From Candidatus Oleincola secundus (GTDB taxonomy: Bacteria > Atribacterota > Phoenicimicrobiia > Phoenicimicrobiales > Stramentimicrobiaceae), in the NCBI GenBank assembly GCA_018400815.1, contig JAGYLS010000007.1, forward strand, positions 1-44,611: a stretch of DNA of 44,611 nt. The letters are read 5' to 3'. Under the pieces are notes generated by a model. The model saw nothing but the letters and a program-made list of their open reading frames with translations, searched no databases and was not told the DNA's origin. Shown piece by piece: positions 13,020-39,358 of the stretch (position 1 is its first letter; every line of letters begins with the position of its first letter). The position numbers were made by a program, and so were the translations under genes.

Positions 13020-13053
13020 TTTTCTTTTCCTGGAATATTTGTGTGTGTAAATC

Positions 13054-13340: not shown

Positions 13341-13375
13341 CTTTACTACATACTACATACCCGATACTCGATACT
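13341..13375 (-). repeat. Heptamer tandem array, inverted relative to 13054-13085
   Basis: ctttact acatact acatacc cgatact cgatact. Confidence 0.85.
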
Positions 13376-13384
13376 ATTGTACTT

Positions 13385-18755: not shown

Positions 18756-18947
18756 TGCTTAAATCACCTCTTTCAAATTTTGTAACAGTTTGTTCTTATA
18801 TCAGTAATATAAATTTAAATAGTTGTTGTCTTTTATTTATTTAGTACATTTATAAAACTTAAATCTTTTATGTTTACTATCAATCGATAGTCATTATAAT
18901 TATCTTATTTCCTTTAAGTTAACATCATACCAATATTAACAATACTT

Positions 18948-20702
18948 TTAATGATAAAGGGTAAACTTTTTATGTCTCTTTTTCCCCCCGATTTGGGCCT
19001 CGTATTCTTCTCTAAAGTATCGAATAGTAGTTAAAACCGGATTTGGTGCAGTTTGTCCCAATCCACAAAGAGCAGTGTCTTTGAGAATATTTGCCAGTTT
19101 TTCTAGAAGTTCAATATCCCCTTCTTTGCCTTTTCCTTCCCAGATATTGTTGAGAATTTCTGACAACCTCTTGGTGCCTTCCCGGCAAGGAGTACATTTG
19201 CCGCAGGATTCTTCCTGACAAAAATCCATAAAGAAGCGAGCTATATCTACCGCACTTTTATCCTCATTTATAACAATCAAACCCCCGGATCCCATAATAG
19301 CACCCAGCTCTTTAATTGTCTCATAATCAATTGGGGCATTAAGATGTTGAGATGGGATACAACCTCCAGAAGGTCCTCCGATCTGGGCTGCCTTGAATTT
19401 TTTACCTTCAGGTATTCCACCCCCAATGTTAAAAATAATTGTCTCTAAGGTTGTACCAATAGGCACTTCGACTAAACCTACATTATTGACATCACCTGTC
19501 AATGCAAAAATTTTAGTACCTTTACTTTTTTCTGTGCCAACGCTGGCAAACCATGTGCTACCATTGAGAATAATCTGTGGAATATTAGCTAAGGTCTCAG
19601 TATTATTTAAAACGGTTGGCTTCTCCCATAAACCAGCCTTGGCAGGAAAAGGAGGACGAGGCCTTGGTACACCTCTTTTCCCTTCAATGGACCTCATTAA
19701 GGCAGTCTCTTCTCCACAAACAAAGGCCCCGGCCCCACGGTAAATCTTTAAGTCAAAATCAAAACCTGTTCCCAATATATCAACCCCTATTAGCCCCCAT
19801 TCTTTAGCCTGATCAATGGCTTTGTTTAATATTTTTATGGCCAGAGGATACTCTGCCCGACAGTAAATATATCCCTGATGCGCACCGATTGCTTTAGCCG
19901 CAATGACCATGCCTTCAATTACAGAATGAGGATCCCCTTCTAAGATACTTCGATTCATATAAGCACCCGGGTCACCCTCATCAGCATTACAAATAACATA
20001 TTTAGTCTCACTTTTTTCCCTGGCCGTAAATTGCCATTTAAGACCGGTGGGAAATCCTGCTCCACCTCTTCCTCTCAAACCTGAAGTCATTACTTCACTA
20101 ATAATTTCATCCGGGTTCATGGCAGTAAGTGCTTGGGCCATTCCCTTATATCCGTCCCTTGCAATATAGTCTTCGATTTTTTCAGGGTCAATCAAGCCAC
20201 GATTTCTTAATACTCTTAATTCCTGATTACGGTAAAAAGGTATTTCCTCTATGCCGGGAATCAATTTTTCTGTTATCGCCTCACTAGGTAATTCCCTTTT
20301 TTGCTTGATTCTTTCCTTAACTTGCTGTTGTCTTCCTCTGGCTAAAGCATAACTGGATAAAGGTTGGCCTCTCAAAATATGTTGTTCAAAAATTTCCAGT
20401 ATTTTTTCCTGATTCAACTCCTGGTAAATAACCGGTTCCTGCCCCGACATCTCTATGGTTACCATAGGTTCTCTTCCACAAAATCCTATACACCCGGTTC
20501 TAGAGATCATTATTTCTTTGCTTATTTTTGACTCAGCAATTTTTTTTAAAAGAGTGTCTAAAATTCTTTGGGCACCTGAGGCAATGCCACAAGTGCCCAT
20601 ATGAACAATGACATTAATTTTCTTACTTTGTCTTAAGATTAATTCCTGGTTAATAATATCTTTTTTTATTTTTACTATATCTTTTACTTGCAGTTTTTTC
20701 AT
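18948..20702 (-). CDS. NuoF/HydB-like FMN/NAD subunit of the FDH complex, lacking a C-terminal ferredoxin domain
   Basis: Thioredoxin-like 2Fe-2S N-terminus; 'GLRGRGGAGFPTG', 'NADEGDPGAYMNR', 'CGEETAL', 'ESCGKCTPCREG', 'LCGLG'. Confidence 0.93.
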   Translation of the reverse strand: MKKLQVKDIVKIKKDIINQELILRQSKKINVIVHMGTCGIASGAQRILDTLLKKIAESKISKEIMISRTGCIGFCGREPMVTIEMSGQEPVIYQELNQEKILEIFEQHILRGQPLSSYALARGRQQQVKERIKQKRELPSEAITEKLIPGIEEIPFYRNQELRVLRNRGLIDPEKIEDYIARDGYKGMAQALTAMNPDEIISEVMTSGLRGRGGAGFPTGLKWQFTAREKSETKYVICNADEGDPGAYMNRSILEGDPHSVIEGMVIAAKAIGAHQGYIYCRAEYPLAIKILNKAIDQAKEWGLIGVDILGTGFDFDLKIYRGAGAFVCGEETALMRSIEGKRGVPRPRPPFPAKAGLWEKPTVLNNTETLANIPQIILNGSTWFASVGTEKSKGTKIFALTGDVNNVGLVEVPIGTTLETIIFNIGGGIPEGKKFKAAQIGGPSGGCIPSQHLNAPIDYETIKELGAIMGSGGLIVINEDKSAVDIARFFMDFCQEESCGKCTPCREGTKRLSEILNNIWEGKGKEGDIELLEKLANILKDTALCGLGQTAPNPVLTTIRYFREEYEAQIGGKKRHKKFTLYH

Positions 20703-20738
20703 ATCAAAATAATTACCATATAATTTAATTAATTTGAG

Positions 20739-21236
20739 CTATTTATATTTCTCCAATATCTCAATTACTTTTGATGGTTGAACTCTTCCATATACTTCTC
20801 CATCAACTACCATTACCGGTGCCAGTCCACAAACTCCTAAACATCTGACCGTTTCATAAGTAAACCTTCTATCTAAAGTCGTTTCTCCAGGCTTTACCTG
20901 ATATTCTTTTTCAATGACTTGGGCATTTTCTTTGCCCCCTTTAACATAACAGGCAGTCCCTAAACAGATCTGAATAGTATGTCTACCTCGAAGTTTCATA
21001 GTAAAAAAGGAATAAAAAGTCACTACACCATAAATTTGACTCAAAGGAATATCTGTTTCGTAAGCTATCTTTTTCAGCACTATCATTGGTAAATACCCAA
21101 TAATATCCTGGGCATCTTCAAGCAAAAGAATTAAACCACCAGGTTCTTTCCGGTATTTGGCAATAATTTCATCCAATTGAATGAGCTGTTTAGAACTAAA
21201 TTCTTGCAATAACACCTTATTCATCTGATCTTCCAT
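20739..21236 (-). CDS. NuoE/HydC-like 2Fe-2S subunit
   Basis: 'VVTFYSFF', 'CLGTAC', 'CLGVC'. Confidence 0.93.
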   Translation of the reverse strand: MEDQMNKVLLQEFSSKQLIQLDEIIAKYRKEPGGLILLLEDAQDIIGYLPMIVLKKIAYETDIPLSQIYGVVTFYSFFTMKLRGRHTIQICLGTACYVKGGKENAQVIEKEYQVKPGETTLDRRFTYETVRCLGVCGLAPVMVVDGEVYGRVQPSKVIEILEKYK

Positions 21237-21412: not shown

Positions 21413-21904
21413 TTAATCAAATATATTAAGACCTGAAGCCTTTAGTGCCCTTTCAGCTAATAAAGCAATAACTCCTCCTGCCAGTGCTGTTAAAAATTGA
21501 GGAAAACTCATCATTTGGGCAACTGGCGGTGGAACCTGAACTAATAAATTTACTGCTGTAACCAGGATTAAAAATTTAACAACAGAAGCAATAATAATAC
21601 CCAAGATTTTACTTTTAGATTTTAAGCAAAAGAATAAAGCTACCAGAGCACCATTACCTAAAGCAATAAATGGTATCAATGGAGCCAAAGGAGGTGGAAG
21701 TATTCCTCGCATAGCTGCAATTACGGGAGTAAAAATGCCAATAAATACACCACCCGGCCAACCTACAATCATAGCTGAAAGATAAAGTACGGTATTTACC
21801 AATGGACCGGTAATTAATTGAGGAAAACCTCCCATTTGAAACACCAAAGCAATGGCTAATAAAATGCCTGTTCTAGTTATCCACCTGATTCCGGTATTTT
21901 GCAT
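21413..21904 (-). CDS. ECF transporter S component, substrate unknown
   Basis: 163 aa, 5-6 TM; 'ITRTGILLAIALVFQ', 'QLITGPLVN'. Confidence 0.8.
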   Translation of the reverse strand: MQNTGIRWITRTGILLAIALVFQMGGFPQLITGPLVNTVLYLSAMIVGWPGGVFIGIFTPVIAAMRGILPPPLAPLIPFIALGNGALVALFFCLKSKSKILGIIIASVVKFLILVTAVNLLVQVPPPVAQMMSFPQFLTALAGGVIALLAERALKASGLNIFD

Positions 21905-21930: not shown

Positions 21931-22185
21931 TTATTCTTTAGATTTGTATAGACAGGATTTCACCTGGGTACCGGATAATAATCCCAATTTTCCGGTAAGA
22001 GAACCTACCTTATCAGTATCTCCATAAATAATAAGACAAATTACGTTGATTTTTTGCTGTGAATTGGGTATGCCAATCCTTCCTAATATCATCTCTGCAT
22101 GTTGACTCAAAATGTCATTTACTTCTCTTATTGAGCATTTTTCCGGTTTGATGAATATACTTACTGTTCCAAAACGATACTCCAT
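21931..22185 (-). CDS. TM1266 family 'iron-only hydrogenase system regulator' (ACT-like fold)
   Basis: 'VN.ILS.H..MILGRIGIP', 'VI.LII.GDTD.VGSLTGKLG.L.G..VKS'. Confidence 0.9.
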   Translation of the reverse strand: MEYRFGTVSIFIKPEKCSIREVNDILSQHAEMILGRIGIPNSQQKINVICLIIYGDTDKVGSLTGKLGLLSGTQVKSCLYKSKE

Positions 22186-22217: not shown

Positions 22218-22257
22218 AAAAAAGGATTAACCTTCAAGAAAGAAGATTAATCCTTTT
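22218..22257 (-). terminator. Intrinsic terminator/attenuator between hydA and the TM1266 gene
   Basis: Minus strand AAAAGGATTAATCTTC-TTTCTT-GAAGGTTAATCCTTTTTT (16-bp stem with one G-U pair, U tract). Confidence 0.85.
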
Positions 22258-22359: not shown

Positions 22360-24150
22360 TTATACCTCTTCTTTTTTCTTTTTCTTATCGAAATAATGAG
22401 TATGAAGGAGATGATGCGATTTTTCTCCCAATGGTTGTCCTAAGAATTCATCATATAGTTGTTTAATTGCAGGGTTTTCATGAGATTTTCGGAATTCACG
22501 ACCTTCATCCTCTTTATAAATTGCCTGAATCCTTGCCATTCTCACTTCATCAGTAGTTAAACGAGGCTGTCCTCCACCACCAATACAACCACCGGGGCAG
22601 GTCATAATTTCAATAAAATGATATTCTTTTTCTCCTTTTAGAATAGATTCAATTACTTTATTAGCATTTCCCAACCCATGTGCTACCGCTACCTTAAGTG
22701 TGACACCTTCTAAAAATTTCCAATCCGGCAATGTTTCTTTAATGGTTAGCTCGGCTTCTTTAACTCCATCTAACCCCTGGACTGGCGTAACATGCAATTT
22801 ATCGAAAGGGAGATCTCCTCCAGTAACAATTGCATAAGCCGTACGTAGCGCGGCTTCCATTACACCACCGGTATTGGCGAAGATATCCGCTGCACCAGTA
22901 GAAATACCCATAGGGGCATCCATTTCTTCATCTGGTAAATTAACAAAATCAATACCAGCTTGTTTTATCATTTTTCCAAGTTCTCTTGTTGTCAGGACAT
23001 AATCAACATCTTTTGCACCACTATCATACATTTCATCCCGATTACATTCAAACTTCTTGGCGGTACAGGGCATGATAGAAACAACAACCATTTCTTCCTT
23101 TTTCTTACCGATTTTATCAGCGAAATAAGTTTTAGCTACTGCACCAAACATTTGCTGTGGCGACTTACAGGTCGAAACATTATTTTTCAATTCCGGATAA
23201 AAATTTTCAATATAGTTAATCCAACCGGGGGAACAGGAAGTAAACATGGGCAATTTTGTTTTTTCATCCTTATCTACCAATTTTTTCTTTAACCGGGTTA
23301 ATAATTCCGTACCTTCTTCCATGATGGTCAAATCGGCAGCAAAATTGGTATCAAATACCTGTTTAAATCCCAACATCTTCAATGCTGCAACCATACGACC
23401 TTTTACCAATGTACCCGGCGGCAAGTCAAAACATTCACCTAATGCAGCCCGAATAGCCGGAGCTGTTTGGACTACCACAAATTTTTCAGGATCTTCTAAG
23501 ATTTCCCAAACCTTTTCAGTATCATCACATTCACTAATAGCACCTACCGGACAGACCGCGGCACATTGACCACATTGCACACAGACAGCCTCATCCAAAA
23601 AATCTCCCTGTCCAGGTGCAATAATTGTTTCGAATCCCCTGGCTCTTGGCGCCAAAGTACTGACACCCTGGACTTCCTGACACACGGTTACACATCTTCG
23701 GCACAAAATACATTTATTTGGATCCCGAATAATTCCAGGTGTACTCTTATCTAAGGGCAATTTTTCCTTAACAGATTGAAATCTTACTTCTCTTATGCCG
23801 TATTCATCTGCCAGTTTTTGTAATTCACAGCTTTGATTTCGATCACAGGTGTTACATTCCCAGGGATGGTCACATAGCAATAATTCTAATATTGTTTTTC
23901 TGGCATTTCTTACTCTTTTATTATTTGTTTTAATCTTCATTCCTTCATTCACTTCGGTTACACAGGCAGGTTGTAAGGTGTTTGCGCCTTCTACTTCCAC
24001 CACACATACACGACAGGAACCAGGATTTTGAAGCCCTTCCAGATAACAAAGTGTTGGAATTTTGATTCCTACCTTTTTTGCGGCATCCAGAATAGTTGTT
24101 CCTTTCTCTACCTCTAAAGGCATATTGTTTATTTCAATTTTTACTCCCAT
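22360..24150 (-). CDS. hydA: [FeFe]-hydrogenase group A catalytic subunit (multimeric, NAD-linked type)
   Basis: H-cluster motifs 'FTSCSPGW', 'MPCTAKKFE', 'EIMTCPGGCIGGGGQP'; 2Fe-2S, His-Cys3 and 2x4Fe-4S N-terminus. Confidence 0.97.
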   Translation of the reverse strand: MGVKIEINNMPLEVEKGTTILDAAKKVGIKIPTLCYLEGLQNPGSCRVCVVEVEGANTLQPACVTEVNEGMKIKTNNKRVRNARKTILELLLCDHPWECNTCDRNQSCELQKLADEYGIREVRFQSVKEKLPLDKSTPGIIRDPNKCILCRRCVTVCQEVQGVSTLAPRARGFETIIAPGQGDFLDEAVCVQCGQCAAVCPVGAISECDDTEKVWEILEDPEKFVVVQTAPAIRAALGECFDLPPGTLVKGRMVAALKMLGFKQVFDTNFAADLTIMEEGTELLTRLKKKLVDKDEKTKLPMFTSCSPGWINYIENFYPELKNNVSTCKSPQQMFGAVAKTYFADKIGKKKEEMVVVSIMPCTAKKFECNRDEMYDSGAKDVDYVLTTRELGKMIKQAGIDFVNLPDEEMDAPMGISTGAADIFANTGGVMEAALRTAYAIVTGGDLPFDKLHVTPVQGLDGVKEAELTIKETLPDWKFLEGVTLKVAVAHGLGNANKVIESILKGEKEYHFIEIMTCPGGCIGGGGQPRLTTDEVRMARIQAIYKEDEGREFRKSHENPAIKQLYDEFLGQPLGEKSHHLLHTHYFDKKKKKEEV

Positions 24151-24172
24151 TATTTAACTCCTTATCTTATCT

Positions 24173-25816
24173 TTATGAATAGTATACGACTTTTTCGTTT
24201 TGCTCTCTGGTTGGAGACTTACGTTTCTTTTCCGTATTTATACCTTCTCTCAATTCGCCTCCAAAATATTTCAAAGCAGACAGAACCGGTTGGGCAACCG
24301 ACTGTCCCAATGGGCAAAAAGCAGTTAATTTAAGAATGCTGGCAATATCCTGAATATTTTCTAACTCATCAAAATAACCTTCCTTTTTATTTAGCCTTTT
24401 AAAAGCTTCATATATATGTTTGGTCCCAATTCGGCAAACAGAACATCTTCCACAGGATTCGTGAACAAAAAATTTCATACAGCTTGCCAGGAAATCAGAA
24501 ACCGAGACAGAATCATTCATAATAAGCAAAGCACCTGAACCAAGATTGTGCCCTAACTCCTGTAAAGAACTATATTCTAATGGTGTATCCAGCAACTGTT
24601 TAGAAAATACATCACCGGCAGCACCGCCAATTTGTGCCATTTTAAATTGACCGGATGATATTCCACCTGCATAATCATAAATAATTTCCCTTAGGGTAAT
24701 ACCCATAGGCACTTCGATTAATCCAGGACGGTTTACATGCCCTAAAACCGTATAAACTTTTGTACCCGGTGTACTCTTAGCACCAAATCTCCTGAACCAT
24801 TCTGCACCATTTAATATAATAGAAGGGATATTAGCAAGAGTTTCTACATTATTAATGAGCGTAGGTTGTTGTAAAAATCCCTGTTGTGCGGGATAAGGAG
24901 GTTTGATGCGTGGTTCTCCGCGATACCCCTCCATGGAACTGAGCAAAGCTGTTTCTTCTCCACAAACATAGGAACCTGCCCCAATTTTAATCTGAATATT
25001 GAAATTAAATCCTGAACCAAATATATTCTTTCCTAAAAGGCCCATTCCTTTTGCCTGTTTGATGGCATTCTGTAAGCGTTCTATTGATAACTTATATTCC
25101 CCCCTGATGTAGATGTATCCAAATTCAGATTCTACGGCATAGCCGGCAATTGTCATTGCCTCAATTATTTTATGGGGATCTCCTTCCATAATCAAACGGT
25201 CTTTGAAGGTACCAGGTTCTCCTTCATCAGCATTACAAATAACATACTTAGGATATTTTTTTTCTCCAAAGGTGAAAGACCACTTTAAACCTGTGGGAAA
25301 TCCTGCTCCACCTCTTCCTCGTAAACCTGATTCTTTAATAATTTCAATAATTTCTTCCGGTGATTTTTCTTGCAAAACATGACCTAACGCTTCATACCCC
25401 CCTACACCAATATATTCATTGATGTCATCAGGGCTAATCCTTCCACAGTTATTCAGGACTATACGGCCATAATGCTGGGTTTTCCTGGAATCATATTCTA
25501 ATAATCTTAATTCATCCGGTAATGTTCCTGACATTAGTCTTTTTTGATATGTTCTTCCCTTAATAAATTTTTCCTGAATAAATTCCTCGATATCGTCTTC
25601 GGTTATATTGGCATACATTTCTCCACCGGGAAAAACTCCTAACACAACACCCTGGTTCGTAGGACCAATGCTACCAGTTTCAATTACTTTAATCTGCTCG
25701 GAAAGCCCATGGCTACTTAGTTCAGTAATTAATTTTGTTTTAACCTTCCTGGCACCAGAAAGGACAGTATTACTATCAATTCCTACCAAAATTTGGGCAA
25801 TATTTTTGTCAGTCAT
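24173..25816 (-). CDS. hydB: HydB/NuoF-like diaphorase subunit, non-bifurcating type
   Basis: 'NADEGEPGTFKDR', 'GTKVY', 'GGAAG'; Cys-free thioredoxin-like N-terminus; no C-terminal ferredoxin domain. Confidence 0.88.
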   Translation of the reverse strand: MTDKNIAQILVGIDSNTVLSGARKVKTKLITELSSHGLSEQIKVIETGSIGPTNQGVVLGVFPGGEMYANITEDDIEEFIQEKFIKGRTYQKRLMSGTLPDELRLLEYDSRKTQHYGRIVLNNCGRISPDDINEYIGVGGYEALGHVLQEKSPEEIIEIIKESGLRGRGGAGFPTGLKWSFTFGEKKYPKYVICNADEGEPGTFKDRLIMEGDPHKIIEAMTIAGYAVESEFGYIYIRGEYKLSIERLQNAIKQAKGMGLLGKNIFGSGFNFNIQIKIGAGSYVCGEETALLSSMEGYRGEPRIKPPYPAQQGFLQQPTLINNVETLANIPSIILNGAEWFRRFGAKSTPGTKVYTVLGHVNRPGLIEVPMGITLREIIYDYAGGISSGQFKMAQIGGAAGDVFSKQLLDTPLEYSSLQELGHNLGSGALLIMNDSVSVSDFLASCMKFFVHESCGRCSVCRIGTKHIYEAFKRLNKKEGYFDELENIQDIASILKLTAFCPLGQSVAQPVLSALKYFGGELREGINTEKKRKSPTREQNEKVVYYS

Positions 25817-25819
25817 ACT

Positions 25820-26284
25820 CTATTTGCCCTCCTTTTTCTTGATTTGTTCTATAATATTTTTAATCTTTTCACCGGTTAAGTTTCCATAGACAGTATCATT
25901 TATCATAACAGCAGGAGCAACAGAACAGACCCCCAAACAACTGGTTTCTTCCAAGGTAAACAATCCGTCAGTTGTTGTTTCGCTTTTGTCGATCTGCAAT
26001 TCTCTAGAAATAACTTCAAAAATTGTTTCTGCACCCATAATATGACAGGGAGGACTGGCACAAACTCGAATAATATATTTCCCCCTGGGCTGAAAGCTAA
26101 ACATGCTGTAAAATGAAGCAGTCCCGGTAATATCAGATAATGGAATTCTCATTTCCTCACTTAATACAGTAATATTTGCTTTACTAATATAATTCTGCGG
26201 GTCATTGTCTTGAATTTCATGTAAGATCTGCAAAAGGTTTTCTCTTTTTCCTTCATATTTTCTTACAATTTCCCTTACTTTCAT
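25820..26284 (-). CDS. hydC: HydC/NuoE-like 2Fe-2S subunit
   Basis: 'SFYSMF', 'CASPPC', 'CLGVC'. Confidence 0.9.
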   Translation of the reverse strand: MKVREIVRKYEGKRENLLQILHEIQDNDPQNYISKANITVLSEEMRIPLSDITGTASFYSMFSFQPRGKYIIRVCASPPCHIMGAETIFEVISRELQIDKSETTTDGLFTLEETSCLGVCSVAPAVMINDTVYGNLTGEKIKNIIEQIKKKEGK

Positions 26285-29200
26285 AACCCCTCCTCTTCTT
26301 CCTTATATTCACAACGAAGACATCTTTCAGACTCCCTTTGTGCTACAGAGGATTCCCAGGTATTCTCTACTTCCGTATTTCCTTTTCTTTCATCTACTGG
26401 AATTAAATGATGACTTTCTCTACCCCAACTTACCGGTTCATCCTCAGGATTAAATGATACTTCAATGGGATCTTTTACTCTCCAAGGATAGTACACTTCT
26501 TCTTTCTTTCCGGTTAAATAGCTATCAATTTCTTCTGCTGCGTTTTGAGCTGCACCAATAGCTTCAACCACTGTGGCCGGGCCTGAAACAACATCTCCAC
26601 CGGCAAAAATATCTTTTACTGAAGTCTGCCCGTTATCAGAATCTGATTTGACAGTATCATTTCTATTCAAGGTAATCGATTCTGCTTCTGCAATTTCTTT
26701 TATCTTAGTTTTTTGTCCCAATGCAAGTATTAGTGTGTCAATCTCTTTTGAGAAAGGGGAAGCCTGGATTTCAATTGGCCTTCGTCTGCCTGAACTATCA
26801 AATTCACCAAGTCGCATCTTGACCATTTCTACCTTAAGTTTTCCGTTATTCTCAGAAACTGACTTGATATTCTGCAAAACAAAAATATTTACTCCTTCTA
26901 TTTCGGCTTGTTCAATTTCTTCAATATCTGCCGGCATTTCACTGCGGGTTCTGCGATAAACAATAGATACATTTGCTCCTAATCGTTTAGCGGTTCTGGC
27001 TGCATCGATAGCAGTGTTTCCTCCGCCTATGACAACAACCTCATCACCAACATTGATTTTTTCACCGCTATTAACCTTAAAAAGGAAATCGAGTCCGGAC
27101 ATTACTTTATCATTCTCTAAACCACTAACGGGTGGAACCACGCAATCCCAGGCACCTGCAGCCAGATAGAAAGCCTGATATCCTTCCTTACGTAATTGTT
27201 CGATAGTAACATCCTTACCGATACTTGTATTAGTTTTCACCTTAATACCATATTTGATCAAATCTTCTATTTCTTTTCTAACAATCTCTTTAGGTAGTCT
27301 ATATTCCGGAATGGCATAGGTTAACATTCCTCCTGGTTCGGGGAGTGCCTCAAAAACGGCTACTTCATAACCTATCATTGTTAAGAAATAAGCACAGGAG
27401 AGTCCGGAAGGACCAGCACCGATAACAGCTACTTTTTTACCATTGGATTCCTTTTTATCAGGATAAGAAGGTTGATATTTTTTAACCTCATCCGCCATAA
27501 AGCGTTTAACTGCTCTAATATTAATTGCCTCATCAATGTCCCTTCTTCTACATCTTGACTCACAAAATGCCGGACAAACTCTACCACAAACAGCTGGGAA
27601 AGGGTTTGTTTTCATATGGGCCTTTAAGGCTCTCTCGTATTGACCAATCTTAGTATAGGCAAGATAAGCAGGTACATCTACCGAAGCCGGACAACTATTG
27701 GAACAAGGTGCATAGACCAGATCAGCACAAACACCTGCTCGACACTTTTTATCCCGAATATGTTCAATATATTCTTCCCTAAAATACTTAAGTGTGGACA
27801 AAATCGGGTTAGGAGCAGTCTGCCCCAACCCACATAAAGCAGTATCCTTAATTTCGTAAGCAAGTTGTTCAAGATTATCCAAGTCTTCCATAGTCCCCTT
27901 GCCCTGACAAATTCTGGTTAGGATATTAAACATGATGCGAGTCCCCTCTCGACAGGGGGTACACTTACCACAGGACTCTTCCTGAATAAATTCCATGAAA
28001 TAACGGGCTATGTCAACCATACAGGTATCTTCATCCATTACAATTAGTCCACCGGAACCCATAATGGCCCCTAGCTCTTTTAATGATTCATAGTCAACTT
28101 TTACATTAAGATGTTCAACTGGAATACAACCACCGGAAGGACCGCCTATCTGAACTGCTTTCAACTTCTTATTATTTGGAATTCCTCCCCCGATATCATA
28201 AATAATGGTACCAAGAGGAATACCCATAGGTACTTCAATTAAGCCGGTATTATTGATATCTCCCGCCAGGGCAAATACCTTGGTTCCTTTACTTTTTTCT
28301 GTACCTAAAGAGGAAAATTCCTTTGGTCCTTTTAAAATAATATAAGGAACATTGGCATAAGTCTCTACATTATTTAAAACAGTGGGACAGTCAAAAAGTC
28401 CTTTTTGAGCAGGGAAAGGAGGTTTTGGCCTTGGTTCTCCTCTTTTACCTTCGATAGAATGAATTAAGGCTGTTTCCTCACCGCAAACAAAGGCACCGGC
28501 ACCCATTCTAATCTCTAAATTAAAATTAAAATTGGTTCCCAAAATATTATTGCCCAATAACTGGTTGTTTTGGGCATCTTTTATAGCCCGGGACAGTCTT
28601 TCAATAGCAAGAGGGTATTCTGCTCTAACATAAACATATCCCTGATCCGCACCAATAGCATAACCACAAATCATCATAGCCTCAATAATGCTATGGGGAT
28701 CCCCCTCTAAGAGACTCCGATCCATAAAGGCACCAGGATCACCCTCGTCCGCATTGCATAGAACATACTTTTGTGAACCAGGAGCCGCAGCAGTAAACTG
28801 CCACTTTAAACCTGTAGGAAATCCTGCCCCACCTCGCCCTCTCAAACCGGATTCTTTTATAAATTCTATTACCTCTTCTGGTTTTAGCTCTGTTAGGGCC
28901 TTCCCTAAAGACATATACCCATCGGCAGCAATATACTCCTCAATATCCAATGGATTTATATTTCCACAATTCCTTAAAGCAATTTTTTTCTGTAGCTTAA
29001 AGAAATCAATGTCATTAAACATTGCGATAAGTTCATCTTTTTCAGGTTTTTTATATAATAAACGCTTAACTATTCTCCCTTTCAGTAAATGCTCTTGAAC
29101 AATCTCCGGGACGTCTTCAGGCAATACCCTTTGATAGAAAATACCTTCGGGATAAACCACCATAACCGGCCCTAATTCACATGTCCCCATACAACCGGTA

Positions 29201-29334
29201 GCAATGATGTCAATTTCATTATGCAGCCCTACTTTGCCTAATTCGGTTTCTAATGCTTCTTTTACCTTATCAGCCCCTGAGGACAAACAGGCACCACCAT
29301 AACACAACAGTATATGTGCTCTATAATTATCCAT
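26281..29334 (-). CDS. HydB/NuoF fused to a GltD/NfnB-like FAD/NADP(H) oxidoreductase
   Basis: NuoF motifs ('NADEGDPGAFMDR', 'GGPSG', 'CRAGVC'), then 'APCSNSCP', 'CGRVCPAFCESRC', 'VIGAGPSG', 'GGGNTA..YRR', 'FAGGD', 'RCLRC'. Confidence 0.92.
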   Translation of the reverse strand: MDNYRAHILLCYGGACLSSGADKVKEALETELGKVGLHNEIDIIATGCMGTCELGPVMVVYPEGIFYQRVLPEDVPEIVQEHLLKGRIVKRLLYKKPEKDELIAMFNDIDFFKLQKKIALRNCGNINPLDIEEYIAADGYMSLGKALTELKPEEVIEFIKESGLRGRGGAGFPTGLKWQFTAAAPGSQKYVLCNADEGDPGAFMDRSLLEGDPHSIIEAMMICGYAIGADQGYVYVRAEYPLAIERLSRAIKDAQNNQLLGNNILGTNFNFNLEIRMGAGAFVCGEETALIHSIEGKRGEPRPKPPFPAQKGLFDCPTVLNNVETYANVPYIILKGPKEFSSLGTEKSKGTKVFALAGDINNTGLIEVPMGIPLGTIIYDIGGGIPNNKKLKAVQIGGPSGGCIPVEHLNVKVDYESLKELGAIMGSGGLIVMDEDTCMVDIARYFMEFIQEESCGKCTPCREGTRIMFNILTRICQGKGTMEDLDNLEQLAYEIKDTALCGLGQTAPNPILSTLKYFREEYIEHIRDKKCRAGVCADLVYAPCSNSCPASVDVPAYLAYTKIGQYERALKAHMKTNPFPAVCGRVCPAFCESRCRRRDIDEAINIRAVKRFMADEVKKYQPSYPDKKESNGKKVAVIGAGPSGLSCAYFLTMIGYEVAVFEALPEPGGMLTYAIPEYRLPKEIVRKEIEDLIKYGIKVKTNTSIGKDVTIEQLRKEGYQAFYLAAGAWDCVVPPVSGLENDKVMSGLDFLFKVNSGEKINVGDEVVVIGGGNTAIDAARTAKRLGANVSIVYRRTRSEMPADIEEIEQAEIEGVNIFVLQNIKSVSENNGKLKVEMVKMRLGEFDSSGRRRPIEIQASPFSKEIDTLILALGQKTKIKEIAEAESITLNRNDTVKSDSDNGQTSVKDIFAGGDVVSGPATVVEAIGAAQNAAEEIDSYLTGKKEEVYYPWRVKDPIEVSFNPEDEPVSWGRESHHLIPVDERKGNTEVENTWESSVAQRESERCLRCEYKEEEEGL

Positions 29335-29357
29335 AATCTACCTACCTTATCCCTTCA

Positions 29358-29849
29358 TTACTTATATAATTCTAAAACTTGATCAAGTTTTTTCGGCGTC
29401 ATTCTACCATGTACATCATTATCAATCATGATAACCGGAGCCAAGCCACATGCCCCCAAACATCGCTGAATTCCCAAAGAAAATCTTCGGTCTTCTGTAG
29501 TTTCACCTGGCTTAATGTCCAATGTCTTTTCAACTGCCTCCATTATCTTCTTGGCTCCCCTAACATAACAGGCTGTGCCCATGCAAACAGTTATAGTATG
29601 CCTGCCTACTGGGTTCATTCTAAAGAAAGAATAAAAAGTTACTACACCCATAACCATGCTTACCGGTATATTCATTTTTTCGGCTACAAATTCACGGACT
29701 TCAGCCGGTAAATAGCCAAAAATTTCCTGAGCTTTGTGTAATACCGGAATAAGAAATCCTTTTTTATCACTGTTATTTTTTATAAACTCTTTCAGTTTTT
29801 GATATTTTTCTTCCTGTGATAGTTCTTTTTCCTGAATCTTGGTTGTCAT
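29358..29849 (-). CDS. hydC: HydC/NuoE-like 2Fe-2S subunit
   Basis: 'LIPVLHKAQEIFGYLP', 'CMGTAC', 'CLGAC'. Confidence 0.92.
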   Translation of the reverse strand: MTTKIQEKELSQEEKYQKLKEFIKNNSDKKGFLIPVLHKAQEIFGYLPAEVREFVAEKMNIPVSMVMGVVTFYSFFRMNPVGRHTITVCMGTACYVRGAKKIMEAVEKTLDIKPGETTEDRRFSLGIQRCLGACGLAPVIMIDNDVHGRMTPKKLDQVLELYK

Positions 29850-29851
29850 AA

Positions 29852-30217
29852 TTATTCTCCCTTTGAAAATAAATATTTTTCAACGATATTCCCTTTTAAG
29901 ACATGTTGGTTAAAAATTTCTTCGGCAGCAGCAACATCAACATGACCATAGGTAACCGGTTCTTTATCTTTTTCCTGGACTTTAATCATAGGTTCCTGTT
30001 CACAAAAACCAGCACATCCGGTAGTAGAAATAACAATATCAGATCTGCCGCTTTGAGCACTTAAATCAGCTAACTTATTCATGGTCTGCCTCGCTCCAGC
30101 AGCGATACCACAGGTTCCCAGACATACAATTATCTTCACTCCAAAGTCTCCTGATCGCATATCAAGGTTTCTACGAACTCTCTCCCTTATCTGTTTTAAT
30201 TCCTCTAAATTCTTCAT
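29852..30217 (-). CDS. Thioredoxin-like (2Fe-2S) ferredoxin, HydD/HndB-like small subunit
   Basis: 'CLGTCGIAAGA', 'TGCAGFCEQEP', 'QHVLKG'. Confidence 0.9.
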   Translation of the reverse strand: MKNLEELKQIRERVRRNLDMRSGDFGVKIIVCLGTCGIAAGARQTMNKLADLSAQSGRSDIVISTTGCAGFCEQEPMIKVQEKDKEPVTYGHVDVAAAEEIFNQHVLKGNIVEKYLFSKGE

Positions 30218-30283: not shown

Positions 30284-30838
30284 TTAGGAAACACCAAATT
30301 GCTGATTTATGCCAATTTTAAGTAATTCTTTTCTCAATTGCTCTTTAACAAAATTTAATATTTCTATATCCTGTAAAATATTGACATCTAAAAGTTCTTT
30401 TAATTCAATAGTATCTAATATTTTTTTCTCCTCCTTTGATTTAAGGACGATTATCTCAAAATCAATACCAGGCCAGCTACGAAGTACATCTGTAAACACA
30501 ACCGATATATCACCAAAAGGACGAGCATCAATATGCGTCATGTTTACGACAAATTCCAAACTGGTTCCTGCTCTTTTTCCCAGTTTAGACATTTTTAAAT
30601 AGCCACCTGTCCCTTCTGTAGTTGCTTTTAAAAGGGGTAAGCCCAAGCCTACTTTTCTAGTTTTTCTAGAAGTAACAAAAGGATCTGTTATATTTTCCAA
30701 ACTTGTAGCTATCCCATTATCGATAACACGGCATAAAAAAAGGTTTTTACAAAAGGAAAAAGTAACCATTATTTTATTAGCATGAGCATTGACTGAATTC
30801 TCTAAAATATCAAAAAGATGGTCTGCGATAGTTCTCAT
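30284..30838 (-). CDS. Stand-alone HATPase_c (histidine-kinase-like ATPase), hydrogenase-associated
   Basis: 'DILENSV.A.A', 'DNG', 'DPFVTSRKTRKVGLGLPL'. Confidence 0.88.
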   Translation of the reverse strand: MRTIADHLFDILENSVNAHANKIMVTFSFCKNLFLCRVIDNGIATSLENITDPFVTSRKTRKVGLGLPLLKATTEGTGGYLKMSKLGKRAGTSLEFVVNMTHIDARPFGDISVVFTDVLRSWPGIDFEIIVLKSKEEKKILDTIELKELLDVNILQDIEILNFVKEQLRKELLKIGINQQFGVS

Positions 30839-31553
30839 TTTTCCTCTCATGTAAATATTTTTTTAAAATATTGAAATTAATTAATTCATCACTGTTTGCT
30901 TCCAAATAGAATAAACCGATATCATCCGGGTTATGACTGTCAGAACCACAAATAACTGGGAATCCAGATAAGGTATCCCCAAATTGATATTTGTCTTTAT
31001 GCCACTTATATTTAGAGACCTCTACCGCATCAAAGGGGGCCTTTTCATCAAGAAAACCCAGCTGACTGTTTAGACTGAATCGATTTTTATCAATATGAGC
31101 CGGAATTGCTATGCCTTTCAGTCTATGTATCTCATCAACTAACTTCTCCAGGCTCATGTTTATAGCCGATTGTCTTAATCTATGGTCTAAATCGACAATC
31201 TCTCCTGTATTATCATATATCACCTGATGACCAAAAAATTCCGGTTTATTTTCCAAGTCTGGTAGTAATCTTTCAACTAATTCCCCTAATTTTAAAAGAG
31301 CCGTTATGTCATCAAAATAAGCTAGCATATGTACTTCTTCTCGACTGGTTAATTCAACACCAGGAAGAATTTTTATGTCCTCTTTTTTGCTTATTTGGCA
31401 GGCTAAAAGAGAATGCTTTATTGCATTGTGATCAGCAATAGAAATAAGTTTTAACCCGCTTTTCATTGCCTCTTTTATAATAAAAGAAGGGGACATCTCA
31501 TCAGCCCCGCATGCCGAAAGAGAAGAATGAATATGTAAATCAATCTTTATCAG
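30810..31553 (-). CDS. PHP-domain phosphoesterase, inferred CTG start
   Basis: 'DLHIHS' lies upstream of the first ATG (31496); 'ADHN', 'GVE', 'PAHID', 'GSDSH'. Confidence 0.85.
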   Translation of the reverse strand: MIKIDLHIHSSLSACGADEMSPSFIIKEAMKSGLKLISIADHNAIKHSLLACQISKKEDIKILPGVELTSREEVHMLAYFDDITALLKLGELVERLLPDLENKPEFFGHQVIYDNTGEIVDLDHRLRQSAINMSLEKLVDEIHRLKGIAIPAHIDKNRFSLNSQLGFLDEKAPFDAVEVSKYKWHKDKYQFGDTLSGFPVICGSDSHNPDDIGLFYLEANSDELINFNILKKYLHERKNENYRRPSF

Positions 31554-31884
31554 AATTGCCCTCCAAAAGTTGGTATATCATACCGGAAATATAAAAAGAG
31601 TTCTTCTCACTTCTCAATAGATTGATTTTTTCTTCCCTGGCTTTCTCAATTAGATCCTGATTTATTTCTACATTATTTGAAAACACTATTGCCTTTATAT
31701 CCTTAATCAAAGCGACTGCAATACTGTTCTTATGAGCCTGAATAGTAATCCAGATACTACTGCTATCTGCATTGGCAATAACATCTGACATCAGATCTCC
31801 ACAATAACCTGTTTCTATCTCATCGTCTGAACAAAACACTACTTTTTGTAAAGAACATTTGTCGGCAATTTGTTTTAATCTCAT
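31540..31884 (-). CDS. DRTGG-domain protein
   Basis: 'GYCGDLMSDVIA', 'WITIQAH.N.IAVA'. Confidence 0.88.
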   Translation of the reverse strand: MRLKQIADKCSLQKVVFCSDDEIETGYCGDLMSDVIANADSSSIWITIQAHKNSIAVALIKDIKAIVFSNNVEINQDLIEKAREEKINLLRSEKNSFYISGMIYQLLEGNSDKD

Positions 31885-31886
31885 CT

Positions 31887-32819
31887 TTACCCCCCTAAAT
31901 AAATAGTAGCCTTTAATATCGTACCGGTCTCCATAGAAGATTCCAGATCTAGATGGTCAGCACACTTTTTAATATTTGGCAAACCCATACCTGCACCAAA
32001 TCCCAAAGCCCTGATTTGTTCGGAGGCAGTGGTGAAACCAGGTTTCATTGCCTCTTCTACGTCCGGAATACCGGGGCCATAATCAATTGCTGTAATCATA
32101 ATATTCGATTCATCTACTTCAACAGTAATATATCCACCCAAAGAGTGTATATTAATGTTCATCTCTGCTTCGTAGCAAATAATTGCTACTCTTCGGAGGA
32201 TTTGTTTGTCAATATTTAATTTTTGAAGGTACTTTCGAATGATACTAGCTACTCTGCCTGCATTATCAAAATCTGCCTTTTTAACTTCGAAACGTAAATG
32301 TTTCTTATGGGCTTGTTTAATCATTTTTTCTGATAACCGGGTATTTTGGGCTTCCTTTTTCTCAACTTTCTCGGCAATGGTTTGAATACTTACCAATAAA
32401 CAATTCAAAATATCACCCATTGTTAAAATACCTATAATTTCATTAGAACGAGCATTCTTTGTTACTGGTAATCGTCCAAACTTATAATGTTCAAATTTTT
32501 TAATAGCTGAGACCAGGGAATAATTTTGAGGTATTGTTATTACCTGCCTGGTCATGTAATTTTTTACTTTATTATTTATATAATCTTTATCAAACGCAGT
32601 AATTACATTATCTATGCTGACTATGCCAACGATATTTTTCGTTTTATCCAGGATGGGAACCCCAGATATCCTATTTTTTTTTAATGATGATTGTATTTCC
32701 CGAAAAGTTGCATCCTGACTAAAAAAAATAAGTTTTCTAGTCATGGCGTCTTTGACTTTTATTTCATAAATCAGCTCATTGGCTAATGTTAATTTTTCTC
32801 TGGAATGTAATACTGTCAT
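31887..32819 (-). CDS. CBS-pair fused to an RsbT/RsbW-like Ser/Thr kinase (HATPase) domain
   Basis: Two CBS domains ('RISGVPI', 'FGRLPV'), then 'DFDNAG', 'YEAEMN..IH..GG', 'D.GPGIPD..AM.PGFTTA', 'GFGAGMGLPN'. Confidence 0.9.
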   Translation of the reverse strand: MTVLHSREKLTLANELIYEIKVKDAMTRKLIFFSQDATFREIQSSLKKNRISGVPILDKTKNIVGIVSIDNVITAFDKDYINNKVKNYMTRQVITIPQNYSLVSAIKKFEHYKFGRLPVTKNARSNEIIGILTMGDILNCLLVSIQTIAEKVEKKEAQNTRLSEKMIKQAHKKHLRFEVKKADFDNAGRVASIIRKYLQKLNIDKQILRRVAIICYEAEMNINIHSLGGYITVEVDESNIMITAIDYGPGIPDVEEAMKPGFTTASEQIRALGFGAGMGLPNIKKCADHLDLESSMETGTILKATIYLGG

Positions 32820-33163
32820 AATTTTTCTTGTTTATTTTTTTCCTCTACAATTTTACAGCAAGCATCGAATGTTGATTTAGAAGTCATTAGAAGGGGAATA
32901 TGATGTGATCGGGCTAATCCAATGGCTTCTTGTTCGGGGGCTTTACCTCTAACAAAAACAACCCCTATCCCTCCCGCGATTTCCGCGGTCCTGACTACCT
33001 GTTGAGAAGTTAAACTGGTTAGTAATAAAAAATTATCTTTACTTAGAGCAAGAACATCACTCAATAAGTCACTAGCTGCAAATTCTTCGATTTCCTGATC
33101 GAGATAACTTTCTCCTGTTAACACTTCAGCATCTAAAATCGCCACTATGTCTCTGATTTTCAT
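32816..33163 (-). CDS. DRTGG-domain protein
   Basis: 'ASDLLSDVL', 'QVVRTAE', 'FVRGK.P'; start placed at ATG 33163. Confidence 0.88.
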   Translation of the reverse strand: MKIRDIVAILDAEVLTGESYLDQEIEEFAASDLLSDVLALSKDNFLLLTSLTSQQVVRTAEIAGGIGVVFVRGKAPEQEAIGLARSHHIPLLMTSKSTFDACCKIVEEKNKQEKL

Positions 33164-33244
33164 CGCAAACCCCTGATTTGGAATAATTATTAGCAAGCAG
33201 TAATTATTTATTCCATTATCTATTTTGAAAATATAGTTAATATA

Positions 33245-33262
33245 TTGTGAAAAATATCACAA
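33245..33262. promoter_or_regulatory. Rex operator
   Basis: TTGTGAAAAATATCACAA against consensus TTGTGAA-N4-TTCACAA; adjacent to rex and upstream of the hydrogenase operon. Confidence 0.88.
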
Positions 33263-33354: not shown

Positions 33355-34032
33355 TTAATCATTAATCTTGGGTCCGGAGGATAAAAAATAAACCAATCTT
33401 TCCAGTTCAACGGAAATATCTATTGTATTTACCTTTACATAATGGGGGTATTTGAGAGTAATGGGAGCAAAATTTAAAATAGACTTAACTCCCCCAGCAA
33501 CCATACAATCAACAACCTCTTGTGCAGAGGAAACAGGAACAGTTATAATGCCTACTTTTATATTTTTTTTCTTAATATAATTTTCCATATATTTTACATT
33601 CATAATCTTAATATCATTTACCATTTTTCCAATTTTAGATATGTCACTATCAAATACAGCTTTAATTCTAAAACCTCGCTTTTGGAAGCCTTTATAACGA
33701 AGCAATGCTTCCCCTAGGCTTCCTGCACCTACTATAATAATATCCCACTTTCTGCTTGATCCTAATATATACCCTAAGGTATTTATAAGATCTTGAACGG
33801 GATAACCAATTCCTCTTCTCCCGAATTTTCCAAAATATGCTAAATCTTTACGGATTTGATTAGAATTAATACCTGTTATCTCTGAAATTTCCGATGATGA
33901 AATTGTTTTAAATTTTCTACCCTTTTCTGTTTCGGCAAACAATTCCAAACATCTATGGCAAATAGATAAACGATGAATAGTAGCTTGTGGAATGTTTTTC
34001 TTGTTATTATTAATTGTATGATATCCTTTCAT
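33355..34032 (-). CDS. rex: Redox-sensing transcriptional repressor Rex
   Basis: 'IPQATIHRL', 'ISS.E', 'QIRKDLAYFG.FG.RG.GY', 'VGAG.LG.AL', 'ILNFAP'. Confidence 0.96.
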   Translation of the reverse strand: MKGYHTINNNKKNIPQATIHRLSICHRCLELFAETEKGRKFKTISSSEISEITGINSNQIRKDLAYFGKFGRRGIGYPVQDLINTLGYILGSSRKWDIIIVGAGSLGEALLRYKGFQKRGFRIKAVFDSDISKIGKMVNDIKIMNVKYMENYIKKKNIKVGIITVPVSSAQEVVDCMVAGGVKSILNFAPITLKYPHYVKVNTIDISVELERLVYFLSSGPKIND

Positions 34033-35649: not shown

Positions 35650-36066
35650 TTATTCAACAATCATTTCTGAGTCAAAACGATCTTCATTTGCCAGAAGAAA
35701 GTTTTCAGACATATGCAAACAATTTACCGGACATACATCATTACATTGCGAGCAAAAGATACAACGGTCAATTCTTATTTTTATTTTCTTCTCTTCAGGA
35801 AGAAATTGTATTGCACGTGAAGGACAAACTCTGACACAAAGCTTGCAACCAATGCATTTTTCTCGCTCATAGATAATTTTTCCTCTAAATTTTTCTGGTA
35901 TTTCTACCGGTGAATTAATTTTAACCTCACCATCCTGAACCTTTTTCATAAGTTCTGTAACTGTAGTTTTATCAGGATAATATTTTACAGGAAAACAATT
36001 AGTTGCCGGTTTATGAAATAACTGCCTGATTAATTCAAATCCCATTGGAGTTGGCATACTTTTCAC
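35650..36066 (-). CDS. mbhN: Mbh subunit N (2x[4Fe-4S], NuoI-like)
   Basis: 'KPATN.FP', 'CIGCKLCVRVCP', 'CIFCSQCNDVCP'. Confidence 0.9.
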   Translation of the reverse strand: MKSMPTPMGFELIRQLFHKPATNCFPVKYYPDKTTVTELMKKVQDGEVKINSPVEIPEKFRGKIIYEREKCIGCKLCVRVCPSRAIQFLPEEKKIKIRIDRCIFCSQCNDVCPVNCLHMSENFLLANEDRFDSEMIVE

Positions 36067-36072
36067 CTCGTA

Positions 36073-38300: not shown

Positions 38301-38311
38301 TTTTTGTCACC

Positions 38312-38827
38312 TCAACTTTCATTTTGAACAAGTTCATCCAAACCTTTTTCATTTTTTCTAAAGGGGAAGACGTTTTTTGGAAAATCTTCCGGTAAGAATA
38401 TATTATGCATATCCGGTAGCCCTACAAATTCCACCCCAAACATTTCTTTTGTTTCCCTTTCTGTTGTTTGTGCACCGGGAATTAAATCAGTAATAGTACC
38501 AATTGATGGTTTTTTTCTATCTAAGCTTACCTTTATATTGATAGAAATTTCTTTAAATTTCTCTCCATAGTAAATTGAAAAAAGATAGAGCAAATCAATT
38601 GATTCACCGGTATCATTTCCAGCAATAATCGCAATATGAGGATATTGTAGAGTAGCAAGTAATTTTATAGTATCCCTAAATTTACTCTGCTCAACTTCTA
38701 ACCAGATATTATTAAATTCTTCTTGCTTGATTCCCTCTTTATTTGTATCAATACGGCTATCTAAAATAGATTCTTTTAAATTTTTTTTCAGAAAAGATAA
38801 TAATTCTTTCGGACTCATATATTCCAT
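38312..38827 (-). CDS. mbhK: Mbh subunit K (NuoC-like)
   Basis: 'I.G.DTG', 'ERETKEMFGVEF.G', 'FLPEDFP...PFRK'. Confidence 0.9.
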   Translation of the reverse strand: MEYMSPKELLSFLKKNLKESILDSRIDTNKEGIKQEEFNNIWLEVEQSKFRDTIKLLATLQYPHIAIIAGNDTGESIDLLYLFSIYYGEKFKEISINIKVSLDRKKPSIGTITDLIPGAQTTERETKEMFGVEFVGLPDMHNIFLPEDFPKNVFPFRKNEKGLDELVQNES

Positions 38828-38886
38828 ATCCTCACCAAACCTTTATGTTATATTATAATATCAATCAATTAAATTACCTGCATTTC

Positions 38887-39354: not shown

Positions 39355-39358
39355 TGAA

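Follow-up and report, generated by a model that had tools for sequence, protein, structure and literature searches.

Two unlike HydBC modules encoded ahead of one hydA in Atribacterota: a conserved arrangement of known parts

Why should one hydrogenase catalytic subunit be encoded behind two different electron-input modules? The question is raised by a block of six genes in the window, the 44,611 nt of contig JAGYLS010000007.1 analysed here, which belongs to a metagenome-assembled genome of the Atribacterota (Candidatus Oleincola secundus; genome label G000, 86% complete). On the minus strand the block reads hydD-hydC1-hydB1::GltD-hydC2-hydB2-hydA, six co-directional and closely spaced open reading frames (ORFs; Table 1), with a 4-nt ATGA overlap between hydB1 and hydC2; the gene order, minus-strand span and overlap reported in a preliminary description of this DNA are borne out by the ORF list. 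Pfam assigns to HydB1 NuoF domains followed by DPD_II and Pyr_redox_2, to HydB2 NuoF domains only, and to HydA an H-cluster domain with N-terminal iron-sulfur (FeS) domains. Judged from sequence, the arrangement is real, conserved and uncharacterised, with known parts in a new order. The preferred reading is that one HydA is served by two different HydBC modules, likely both seated on a HydA dimer, of which module 1 (HydC1-HydB1) would couple NADH and NADPH to H2 and module 2 (HydC2-HydB2) would use NADH alone; we hold this reading to be about evenly poised between right and wrong.

Conservation of the tandem and exchange of its parts

The tandem, taken as a pair of same-strand NuoF-type genes spaced by about 3.5 kb, was found in at least 31 of 63 genomes of the phylum (among the matches listed, 47 further ones being unlisted), including 4/4 single-contig genomes, and also in several other phyla, so that the synteny proposed earlier as a check on the locus is indeed present in relatives. 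Misassembly, which the preliminary description had named as a way in which its reading could fail, is ruled out by those single-contig genomes and by the contig evidence, with the whole stretch lying in one contig of run X1 (possibly the source run). Near-identical contigs from an independent study span the hydB2-hydA and hydC2-hydB2 junctions.

For comparison, 40 chosen regions were fetched, together with 80 loci returned from a similarity search with HydB2. In the 44 complete hydB1-hydC2-hydB2-hydA operons (a set chosen by similarity, whose counts are not frequencies), a GltD-like tail on HydB1 is combined with HydA in 34 and with formate dehydrogenase (Fdh) in 7, and a ferredoxin tail with HydA in 2 and with Fdh in 1. 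The 80 returned loci include 36 of the HydB2 type, 17 of them following a HydB fused to a GltD-like tail (B::GltD) and 8 following a ferredoxin-tailed HydB; the remainder stand alone (3), lie opposite a canonical operon (1) or are incomplete (7). Named hosts of the GltD form belong to the Kiritimatiellae, Lentisphaerae/Victivallales, Verrucomicrobiota, Aminicenantes and Thermodesulfobacteriota, and those of the ferredoxin form to the Cloacimonadota and Thermotogota. The last gene of the tandem encodes either HydA or Fdh, and Fdh often replaces HydA in the order of the window, which we take to be the JS1 lineage.

Each module also occurs without the other: B::GltD is the sole HydB beside an A-type subunit in eight compared loci (L097, L098, L105-L109 and L119), and HydB2 in three (L008, L036 and L081). 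Because each is found alone with an A-type subunit, each module is likely able to dock on such a subunit by itself. HydC1-like genes accompany B::GltD where hydC2-hydB2 is missing, and hydD is retained both in hydD-hydC1-B::GltD-Fdh operons and in hydD-hydC2-hydB2-hydA operons. The role of HydD within the complex is uncertain; the first gene had been called a [2Fe-2S] ferredoxin, and it does encode a [2Fe-2S] protein, but a thioredoxin-like one rather than a bacterial 2x[4Fe-4S] ferredoxin.

A FastTree phylogeny was built from 141 of 174 HydB cores, with 12 randomly chosen generic Bacillota sequences kept and cores shorter than 380 aa dropped. Ferredoxin- and GltD-tailed cores interleave on it, the ferredoxin-tailed L116 being sister to the GltD-tailed L113 (support 0.94) and L114, L115 and L118 (ferredoxin) grouping with six GltD cores (1.0). 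On the strength of this interleaving the two tails look like exchangeable exits of the same arm. HydB proteins with the motif TFK, to which HydB2 belongs, form a separate cluster with a support of 1.0. Recent duplication of one HydBC pair is ruled out by this split from the AFM type of HydB1 and by identities of 48% between HydB1 and HydB2 and 34% between HydC1 and HydC2. Two loci show disturbed forms of the block. In L116 (G025:C12) the ferredoxin-tailed HydB that sits among GltD cores is followed by a 184-aa HydB2 remnant and then by Fdh, as if the tail had been exchanged recently and module 2 lost; in L011/L139 (G037:C59) the GltD tail is split into ORFs of 620 and 370 aa, by natural fission or a frameshift.

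The two HydB proteins

Residues 1-533 of HydB1 align without gaps to HydB of A. mobile and carry, at identical numbers, all five residues that ligate the B2 cluster of that enzyme, namely C438, C476, H525, C531 and C536 (PMC8880783; statements on papers cited by PMC number refer to the portions of their text available to us). The core further has AFM at 202-204, F282, GGPSG and four cysteines each for the B5 and B1 clusters, besides this B2/Zn site. F282 aligns with F281 of T. sibiricus NfnB and lies in the motif GAGA[F/Y]xCGEET, which has Phe in 111/111 AxM-type and Tyr in 63/63 TFK-type sequences. AFM, GGPSG, C438, H525, C531, C536 and the B1 cysteines are invariant in 50/50 B::GltD sequences, as are the NAD-site residues D196, F282 and E287 alongside AFM; the B5 cysteines are present in 48-49 of the 50, that is, wherever the N-terminus is covered, and K610, R679 and YRR are each kept in 49. 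All motifs listed for HydB1 in the preliminary description (PGAFM, GTKVF, GGPSG, GGGNTA at 770 and YRR at 793, with the tail in place of the 2x[4Fe-4S] domain) are present, as are PGTFK, GTKVY, GGAAG and the Cys-free N-terminus of HydB2, in which the first Cys comes no earlier than residue 124 and the C-terminal tail is 17 aa long and Cys-less. The use of GTKV[F/Y] to tell the two types apart holds only in part: the window follows the expected direction, but among 63 TFK-type sequences the last residue is Tyr in 44, Phe in 18 and Leu in 1.

The tail begins directly past C536, the normal start of the B3/B4 ferredoxin-docking domain. Its closest matches in the Protein Data Bank (PDB) are NfnA (9N5U, 9BOV) and StnC (8OH5), ahead of NfnL/NfnB, and the search of the PDB returned no solved chain joining both halves of HydB1. 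Alignment to StnC and NfnA would assign a permuted distal cluster to C544/C595/C1005/C1008, with the CxxC relocated to the C-terminus as in those two proteins, and a proximal cluster to C548/C587/C591/K610. The Lys ligand K610 aligns with K170 of StnC, which ligates the cluster proximal to flavin adenine dinucleotide (FAD) and is essential, in a protein whose FAD is non-bifurcating; NfnB has Glu at this place (PMC10482914, PMC12018979). Because K610 matches this residue of a non-bifurcating site, the tail is best read as a plain NADP site. That the tail FAD is instead a second, Nfn-type bifurcating flavin, as Zheng and Huang (2024) propose for their sub-type I, would fit its homology to NfnL/NfnB and the Arg kept near the FAD (R679), yet StnC keeps this Arg and does not bifurcate, the proximal ligand is Lys as in StnC/NfnA and not Glu as in NfnB/NfnL, and the operon holds no NfnS/PyrK-like small subunit of the kind that belongs to NfnAB/NfnSL, which makes this proposal most improbable here.

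In its signature for flavin mononucleotide (FMN) and NADH (AFM, Phe near FMN, GGPSG), its B1, B2 and B5 ligands and the C1 cluster in the BfuC-type subunit, module 1 agrees with the Bfu family, which Schut et al. (2022) define by a core that includes B3/B4 (PMC9304861). Since the C-terminal B3/B4 2x[4Fe-4S] domain (IPR017896) is replaced by DPD_II and Pyr_redox_2, module 1 is not filed as a strict member, though it likely works like one.

HydB2 shows TFK, GAGSY and GGAAG, keeps the FMN/NADH motifs and the B1 cluster, and has neither B5, the B2 site nor B3/B4. It agrees with all the sequence criteria of Losey et al. (2020; PMC7311640), namely Thr/Ser at 232, Lys/Ser/Ala at 234, Tyr near FMN, no GGPSG and fewer FeS clusters, and module 2 is likely of the NADH-only type. 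The closest named relatives of HydB2 are from the Atribacterota, at 65-71% identity. Loss is graded across the TFK type, with 23 of 63 sequences retaining the B2/Zn ligands and 15 retaining GGPSG, and this suggests that TFK-type HydB descends from the bifurcating type. A possible intermediate of the two types is found in L117 (G031:C67), where a TFK-type HydB that retains B5, the B2 site and GGPSG stands directly before Fdh.

Electron flow on a shared HydA

HydA is of the group A3 type, with N-terminal FeS domains, a His-ligated cluster (H95/C99/C102/C108) and intact H-cluster motifs P1-P3, including TSCSPGW as in the active A. woodii HydA. Modelling of two copies of residues 1-500 from a 45-row alignment predicts a homodimer (score 0.68 against 0.00 for the best control; runs agreeing in at least 98% of contacts; predicted local distance difference test, pLDDT, at least 77) whose interface includes the His-ligated cluster; the threshold for this score is passed by 20 of 30 solved homodimers but also by 1 of 23 single chains, and since similar complexes have been solved, memory is possible. 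In T. maritima HydABC the His-ligated clusters lie 9 Å apart across the dimer (PMC9499530). Given a predicted HydA dimer and the single HydB-docking site per protomer expected from solved HydABC, the 'supercomplex' and the 'swappable modules' that the preliminary description offered as alternatives are probably one and the same.

According to the preferred reading, both modules would dock on the dimeric HydA under Rex control, NADPH replacing ferredoxin in module 1 and module 2, whose HydB2 has lost the low-potential arm, handling NADH alone. Electrons in module 1 would pass from NADPH through FAD, the Lys-ligated cluster, the distal cluster and C1 to FMN/B1, be joined there by those of NADH, and reach the H-cluster through HydA, for a net reaction of NADH + NADPH + 2H+ ⇌ 2H2. 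Homo- and hetero-loaded HydA dimers would probably coexist, the mixed form being plausible on the dimer model, and the modules may be linked mainly via H2. Ferredoxin would be left for the membrane [NiFe] hydrogenase encoded upstream. With potentials of -414 mV for H2 and -280 mV for NADH (PMC9304861) and -370 mV for NADPH (PMC6288185), the H2 pressure at equilibrium is computed as 3 Pa with NADH as sole donor, 99 Pa with NADH and NADPH, and 15.6 kPa with NADH and ferredoxin. Module 1 would widen the range of H2 release about 30-fold while sparing ferredoxin; from 3 to 100 Pa H2, the joint action of both modules would, unless gated, move electrons from NADPH to NAD+ by way of H2, and net uphill transfer from NADH to NADPH would be unavailable from the pair.

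The same genes could divide labour without coupling, HydB1 acting as the NADPH entry (FAD to clusters to C1 to FMN to HydA) and HydB2 as the NADH entry, as two independent inputs to one HydA. We consider this unlikely, though to be reckoned with: it explains the keeping of two modules, and the small NADH/NADPH gap leaves little energy to couple, but D196, F282, E287 and AFM of the NAD site of HydB1 are invariant, and HydB2 is also kept beside a ferredoxin-tailed canonical HydB in the eight loci mentioned above, so that it is not there to supply an NADH site missing from HydB1.

A separate two-subunit transhydrogenase, also raised in the preliminary description, has been weakened by the comparison. 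Here HydC1-HydB1 would be a free NADPH:NAD+ transhydrogenase merely co-expressed with an NADH-dependent HydA-HydB2-HydC2 hydrogenase, as might be expected of a chain with two nucleotide sites; moreover, 5 of 6 Fdh-linked HydB2 proteins and that of L006 form a clade of their own apart from HydA-linked HydB2, while HydB1 follows host kinship, which could mean that only HydB2 touches the A-type subunit. However, in L105-L109 and L119, which have no second module, close HydB1 orthologues stand immediately ahead of HydA or Fdh, B::GltD is likewise the sole HydB next to HydA/Fdh in L097, L098 and the sub-type I of Zheng and Huang, L111 has a HydA-type HydB2 together with Fdh, and distances between HydA N-terminal regions track HydB1 (Spearman 0.91) at least as well as HydB2 (0.77) over 36 operons, which are non-independent by kinship. 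A free transhydrogenase is in our view very unlikely.

The earlier reading of a two-module, ferredoxin-independent H2/NADH/NADPH enzyme is upheld as far as conserved synteny and fitting residues carry it, that interpretation as a whole being partly supported, and several points weigh against the preferred reading. The gap between NADH and NADPH is only about 90 mV, and strict coupling may be unnecessary. The AlphaFold model of HydB1 has a predicted template modelling score (pTM) of 0.55, with the SLBB region at a pLDDT below 50, and leaves the position of the tail unfixed. In other Atribacterota families HydB2 keeps the B2/Zn ligands and GGP[S/T]G in 15/15 fetched operons, and the label 'NADH-only' is therefore less clean there. 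In the HydABC of T. kivui, removal of the His-ligated cluster yields an active monomer, so the dimer is dispensable for bifurcation, and simulations of that enzyme argue against electron transfer across the dimer (PMC10021017); a mixed dimer consequently need not be wired internally. The functions given here to B::GltD and to a two-module enzyme are proposals from sequence, as is the docking of the modules on HydA. In four RNA-library runs from two studies, 27-30 of the 30 bins of the block are covered by contigs of close relatives, which also bridge hydB1-hydC2-hydB2, hydB2-hydA and hydC1-hydD, but these contigs record presence only and may include DNA. Finally, HydG was found in 0/42 genomes of the window's order against 27/28 in families f3-f6, HydF above the cut-off in 0/42 against 22/28, and HydE above the cut-off in 0/42, all 42 being fragmented assemblies of 80-100% completeness.

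Maturation, surroundings and known systems

The HydEFG maturases expected of a group A3-type enzyme were thus not found in this order, which qualifies the word 'hydrogenase' for this genome, and a tblastn search of G000 with HydE/F/G of a relative returned generic GTPases only. HydA is present in 21 of the 42 genomes; its H-cluster pocket motifs are conserved in 18/18 examined, and its H-domain has a median ratio of nonsynonymous to synonymous substitution (dN/dS) of 0.05, indicating purifying selection (few pairs were unsaturated: 17 and 12 in the order, with the 0.05 from the 17, and 3-4 in the comparison set). HydA might never be matured in this order and serve as an FeS wire or scaffold, in which case the complex would be an H2-independent NADPH-to-NAD+ transhydrogenase. 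The maturase counts, the tblastn result, the frequent presence of Fdh in HydA's place and an NfnB in G000 that appears frameshifted would all fit; the conserved pocket, the low dN/dS and the TSCSPGW of an active enzyme speak against it, as do the fragmented state of the assemblies and the absence of HydEFG also from some eukaryotes and from most of the archaea that encode an [FeFe] hydrogenase (PMC11216029). We regard an unmatured HydA as quite improbable.

In the window and in 17 other genomes read, hydA is immediately followed, with or without a TM1266-like gene in between, by a gene for an energy-coupling factor (ECF) S-component-like protein. It is present in 20/21 genomes of the order with HydA and in 0/21 without, although the co-occurrence is inflated by adjacency. 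The one exception is G011, whose HydA is more divergent. In maturase-bearing relatives (L125, L128) TM1266 heads a hydE/F/G cluster, and in the window's order, at the point where those relatives would have hydEFG after TM1266, it is the ECF gene that comes after hydA. In two genomes outside the order whose HydB1, HydB2 and HydA are 74-85% identical, HydG is present and the ECF protein has no match; of five genomes tested for both, four have HydG without ECF and one has neither. However, 27/30 genomes of other families also have an ECF homologue, which speaks against a specific link; in maturase-bearing families these homologues lie away from hydA in the 5 loci read of 10 fetched and give no clue to a substrate. 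No riboswitch was found near the ECF gene. The protein resembles an Atlas cluster named HymD (score 0.92) and has a Pfam match to ECF S-components. In the P. acidaminophilum Hym operon a gene for a small membrane protein, HymD, reportedly follows hydA; the gene here differs in its ECF S-component match and in coinciding with missing hydEFG. That the ECF S-component takes up a cofactor precursor is speculation. The joint reading, in which a two-module hydrogenase carries out ferredoxin-free NAD/NADP bifurcation in a lineage that no longer has hydEFG and obtains a ready-made precursor of the H-cluster by way of this protein, as a vitamin-like cofactor auxotrophy, is distinctly unlikely as a whole. 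In eight further loci (L131-L138; G004, G006, G009, G015-G018, G020) hydA and the ECF gene stand alone, several with a hydD-hydC1-hydB-Fdh operon elsewhere, so that a module may serve HydA and Fdh in trans.

A Rex operator-like palindrome precedes the block (Table 1), with 1 mismatch to the consensus TTGTGAA-W4-TTCACAA (PMC2883068). It lies 14 bp downstream of the region's best sigma70-like promoter (33305-33276, minus strand), its score was equalled in 2/100 shuffles, and it is the sole site with at most 1 mismatch in G000. Equivalent sites with 0-2 mismatches were found in 10/10 distinct same-order genomes with upstream DNA and in 1/25 other loci. The site points to induction on a build-up of NADH, as would suit an electron sink. 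Terminator-like hairpins are as frequent in the region as chance predicts (9 found, 9.0 expected), and position is the sole support for the one past hydA.

Table 1. Positions of the hyd block and of its regulatory and neighbouring features in the window
Feature	Position	Strand	Remark
hydD	29852..30217	-	121 aa; thioredoxin-like [2Fe-2S] protein, C32, C36, C68, C72
hydC1	29358..29849	-	163 aa; NuoE-like, C1 cluster; HydB1 partner by gene context
hydB1::GltD	26281..29334	-	1017 aa; Bfu-type core with Stn/NfnABC-type NADP-FAD module
hydC2	25820..26284	-	154 aa; NuoE-like; HydB2 partner by gene context
hydB2	24173..25816	-	547 aa; NADH-only type signature
hydA	22360..24150	-	596 aa; group A3-type, NF040763 above cut-off
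Terminator-like hairpin past hydA	22220..22257	-	16-bp stem, U-rich tail
TM1266-family 'iron-only hydrogenase system regulator'	21931..22185	-	
ECF S-component-like membrane protein	21413..21904	-	HymD-like by Atlas cluster name
DRTGG, CBS-HATPase, DRTGG, PHP-like, HATPase cassette	30284..33196	-	Probably 5' part of the same transcript, judged by spacing
Rex operator-like palindrome	33245..33262	.	1 mismatch to consensus
rex	33355..34032	-	NADH/NAD+-sensing repressor

The rest of the contig forms a hydrogen/formate hub. An Mbh/Mrp-type membrane [NiFe] hydrogenase cluster lies upstream (35650-43752), with the Ni motifs RICGIC/DPCIGC of the large subunit intact, and hypB/F/D/E-like genes lie downstream (8136-14038). 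A third pair, hydC3-hydB3, precedes a formate dehydrogenase of 898 aa (16059-21236); HydB3 has PGAYM and GGPSG without the B2 site or a ferredoxin tail, the latter still present in its L110 orthologue. A tRNA gene is found at 44414-44498 (minus strand, Rfam). Elsewhere in G000 a second HydA operon (C213:1-4937) comprises hydA, a histidine kinase, a response-regulator::HydC fusion and a HydB with PGAYM that ends at the contig edge, and C176:920-4430 holds an intact NfnA-like gene, an NfnB-like gene interrupted after about 190 aa and a stop-containing stretch that resembles glutamate dehydrogenase, the last two of which are pseudogenes or poorly assembled. No RnfC scored above the cut-off in G000, a weak negative for a genome of this completeness.

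In the characterised bifurcating HydABC/Bfu enzymes cited here ferredoxin is the low-potential partner throughout. If the preferred reading is true, a version ending in NADPH would make it possible to follow the coupled reaction by two ordinary pyridine nucleotides and would offer a direct test of what the FMN-C1-B1 site needs for coupling, for which the adjoining NADH-only module, sharing the same HydA, would be a built-in control. Syntrophic and subsurface anaerobes carry the block widely, and in them it would set the H2 level that still allows electron disposal (about 3 versus about 100 Pa). The order itself, with a conserved HydA, no detectable HydEFG and a linked transporter-like gene, offers a concrete candidate for the maturase-independent route, as yet unexplained, that has been noted in archaea and some eukaryotes.

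Literature searches, which covered the supplements of Zheng and Huang (2024) and no others, returned no description of the tandem; a term search of those supplements, whose figure trees are unsearchable, gave no match to a tandem or to Atribacterota, and the available portions of papers on Atribacterota mention only 'trimeric', 'tetrameric' or group A3 enzymes. The novelty first claimed for the locus must be narrowed accordingly: the HydB::DPD_II-FAD fusion and the truncated HydB are the sub-types I and II that Zheng and Huang describe in silico, as separate operons (PMC11406978), and what is new, besides the tandem undescribed in the literature searched, is the 0/42 count for HydE/F/G in an order with HydA in 21 genomes and the ECF gene linked to hydA.

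Compared with S. wolfei Hyd1ABC and S. aciditrophicus HydAB (PMC7311640), HydB2 is alike in Thr/Lys at 232/234, Tyr near FMN, the lack of GGPSG and fewer clusters, a likeness by sequence criteria, but its operon also holds a Bfu-type module, and it retains an N-terminal domain free of Cys. With the Bfu/HydABC enzymes (A. mobile NiFe-HydABCSL 7T2R, A. woodii 7Q4V, T. kivui 8A6T, T. maritima 7P5H) HydB1 shares AFM, GGPSG and the B1, B5 and B2-site ligands, as aligned to A. mobile HydB, and HydA the dimer through a His-ligated cluster; unlike them, HydB1 has no B3/B4 ferredoxin-docking domain, and two different HydBC pairs are encoded per HydA. StnABC (8OH5) and NfnABC (9N5U, 9BOV) combine the same permuted GltD-like NADP-FAD module, with its Lys-ligated cluster, with a Bfu core. 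However, their module sits in the A subunit, beside a B subunit that bears B3/B4, and feeds the mid-potential arm with ferredoxin still a substrate, whereas here it would sit on the low-potential arm in HydB1, replacing ferredoxin, and the A subunit carries an H-cluster domain. The nearest likeness in gene content is to sub-type I BfuABDC of the Hydrogenedentota (PMC11406978), which also has DPD_II and an FAD/NAD(P) domain in place of B3/B4, an M3a HydA with Ser in P1, and HydD. There the fused HydB is the sole one, in a cluster of one C, D, B and A, whereas in the tandem a second, sub-type-II-like HydC-HydB pair stands between hydB1 and hydA; and where the authors of that description propose a bifurcating FAD, the Lys ligand found here argues for a plain NADP site.

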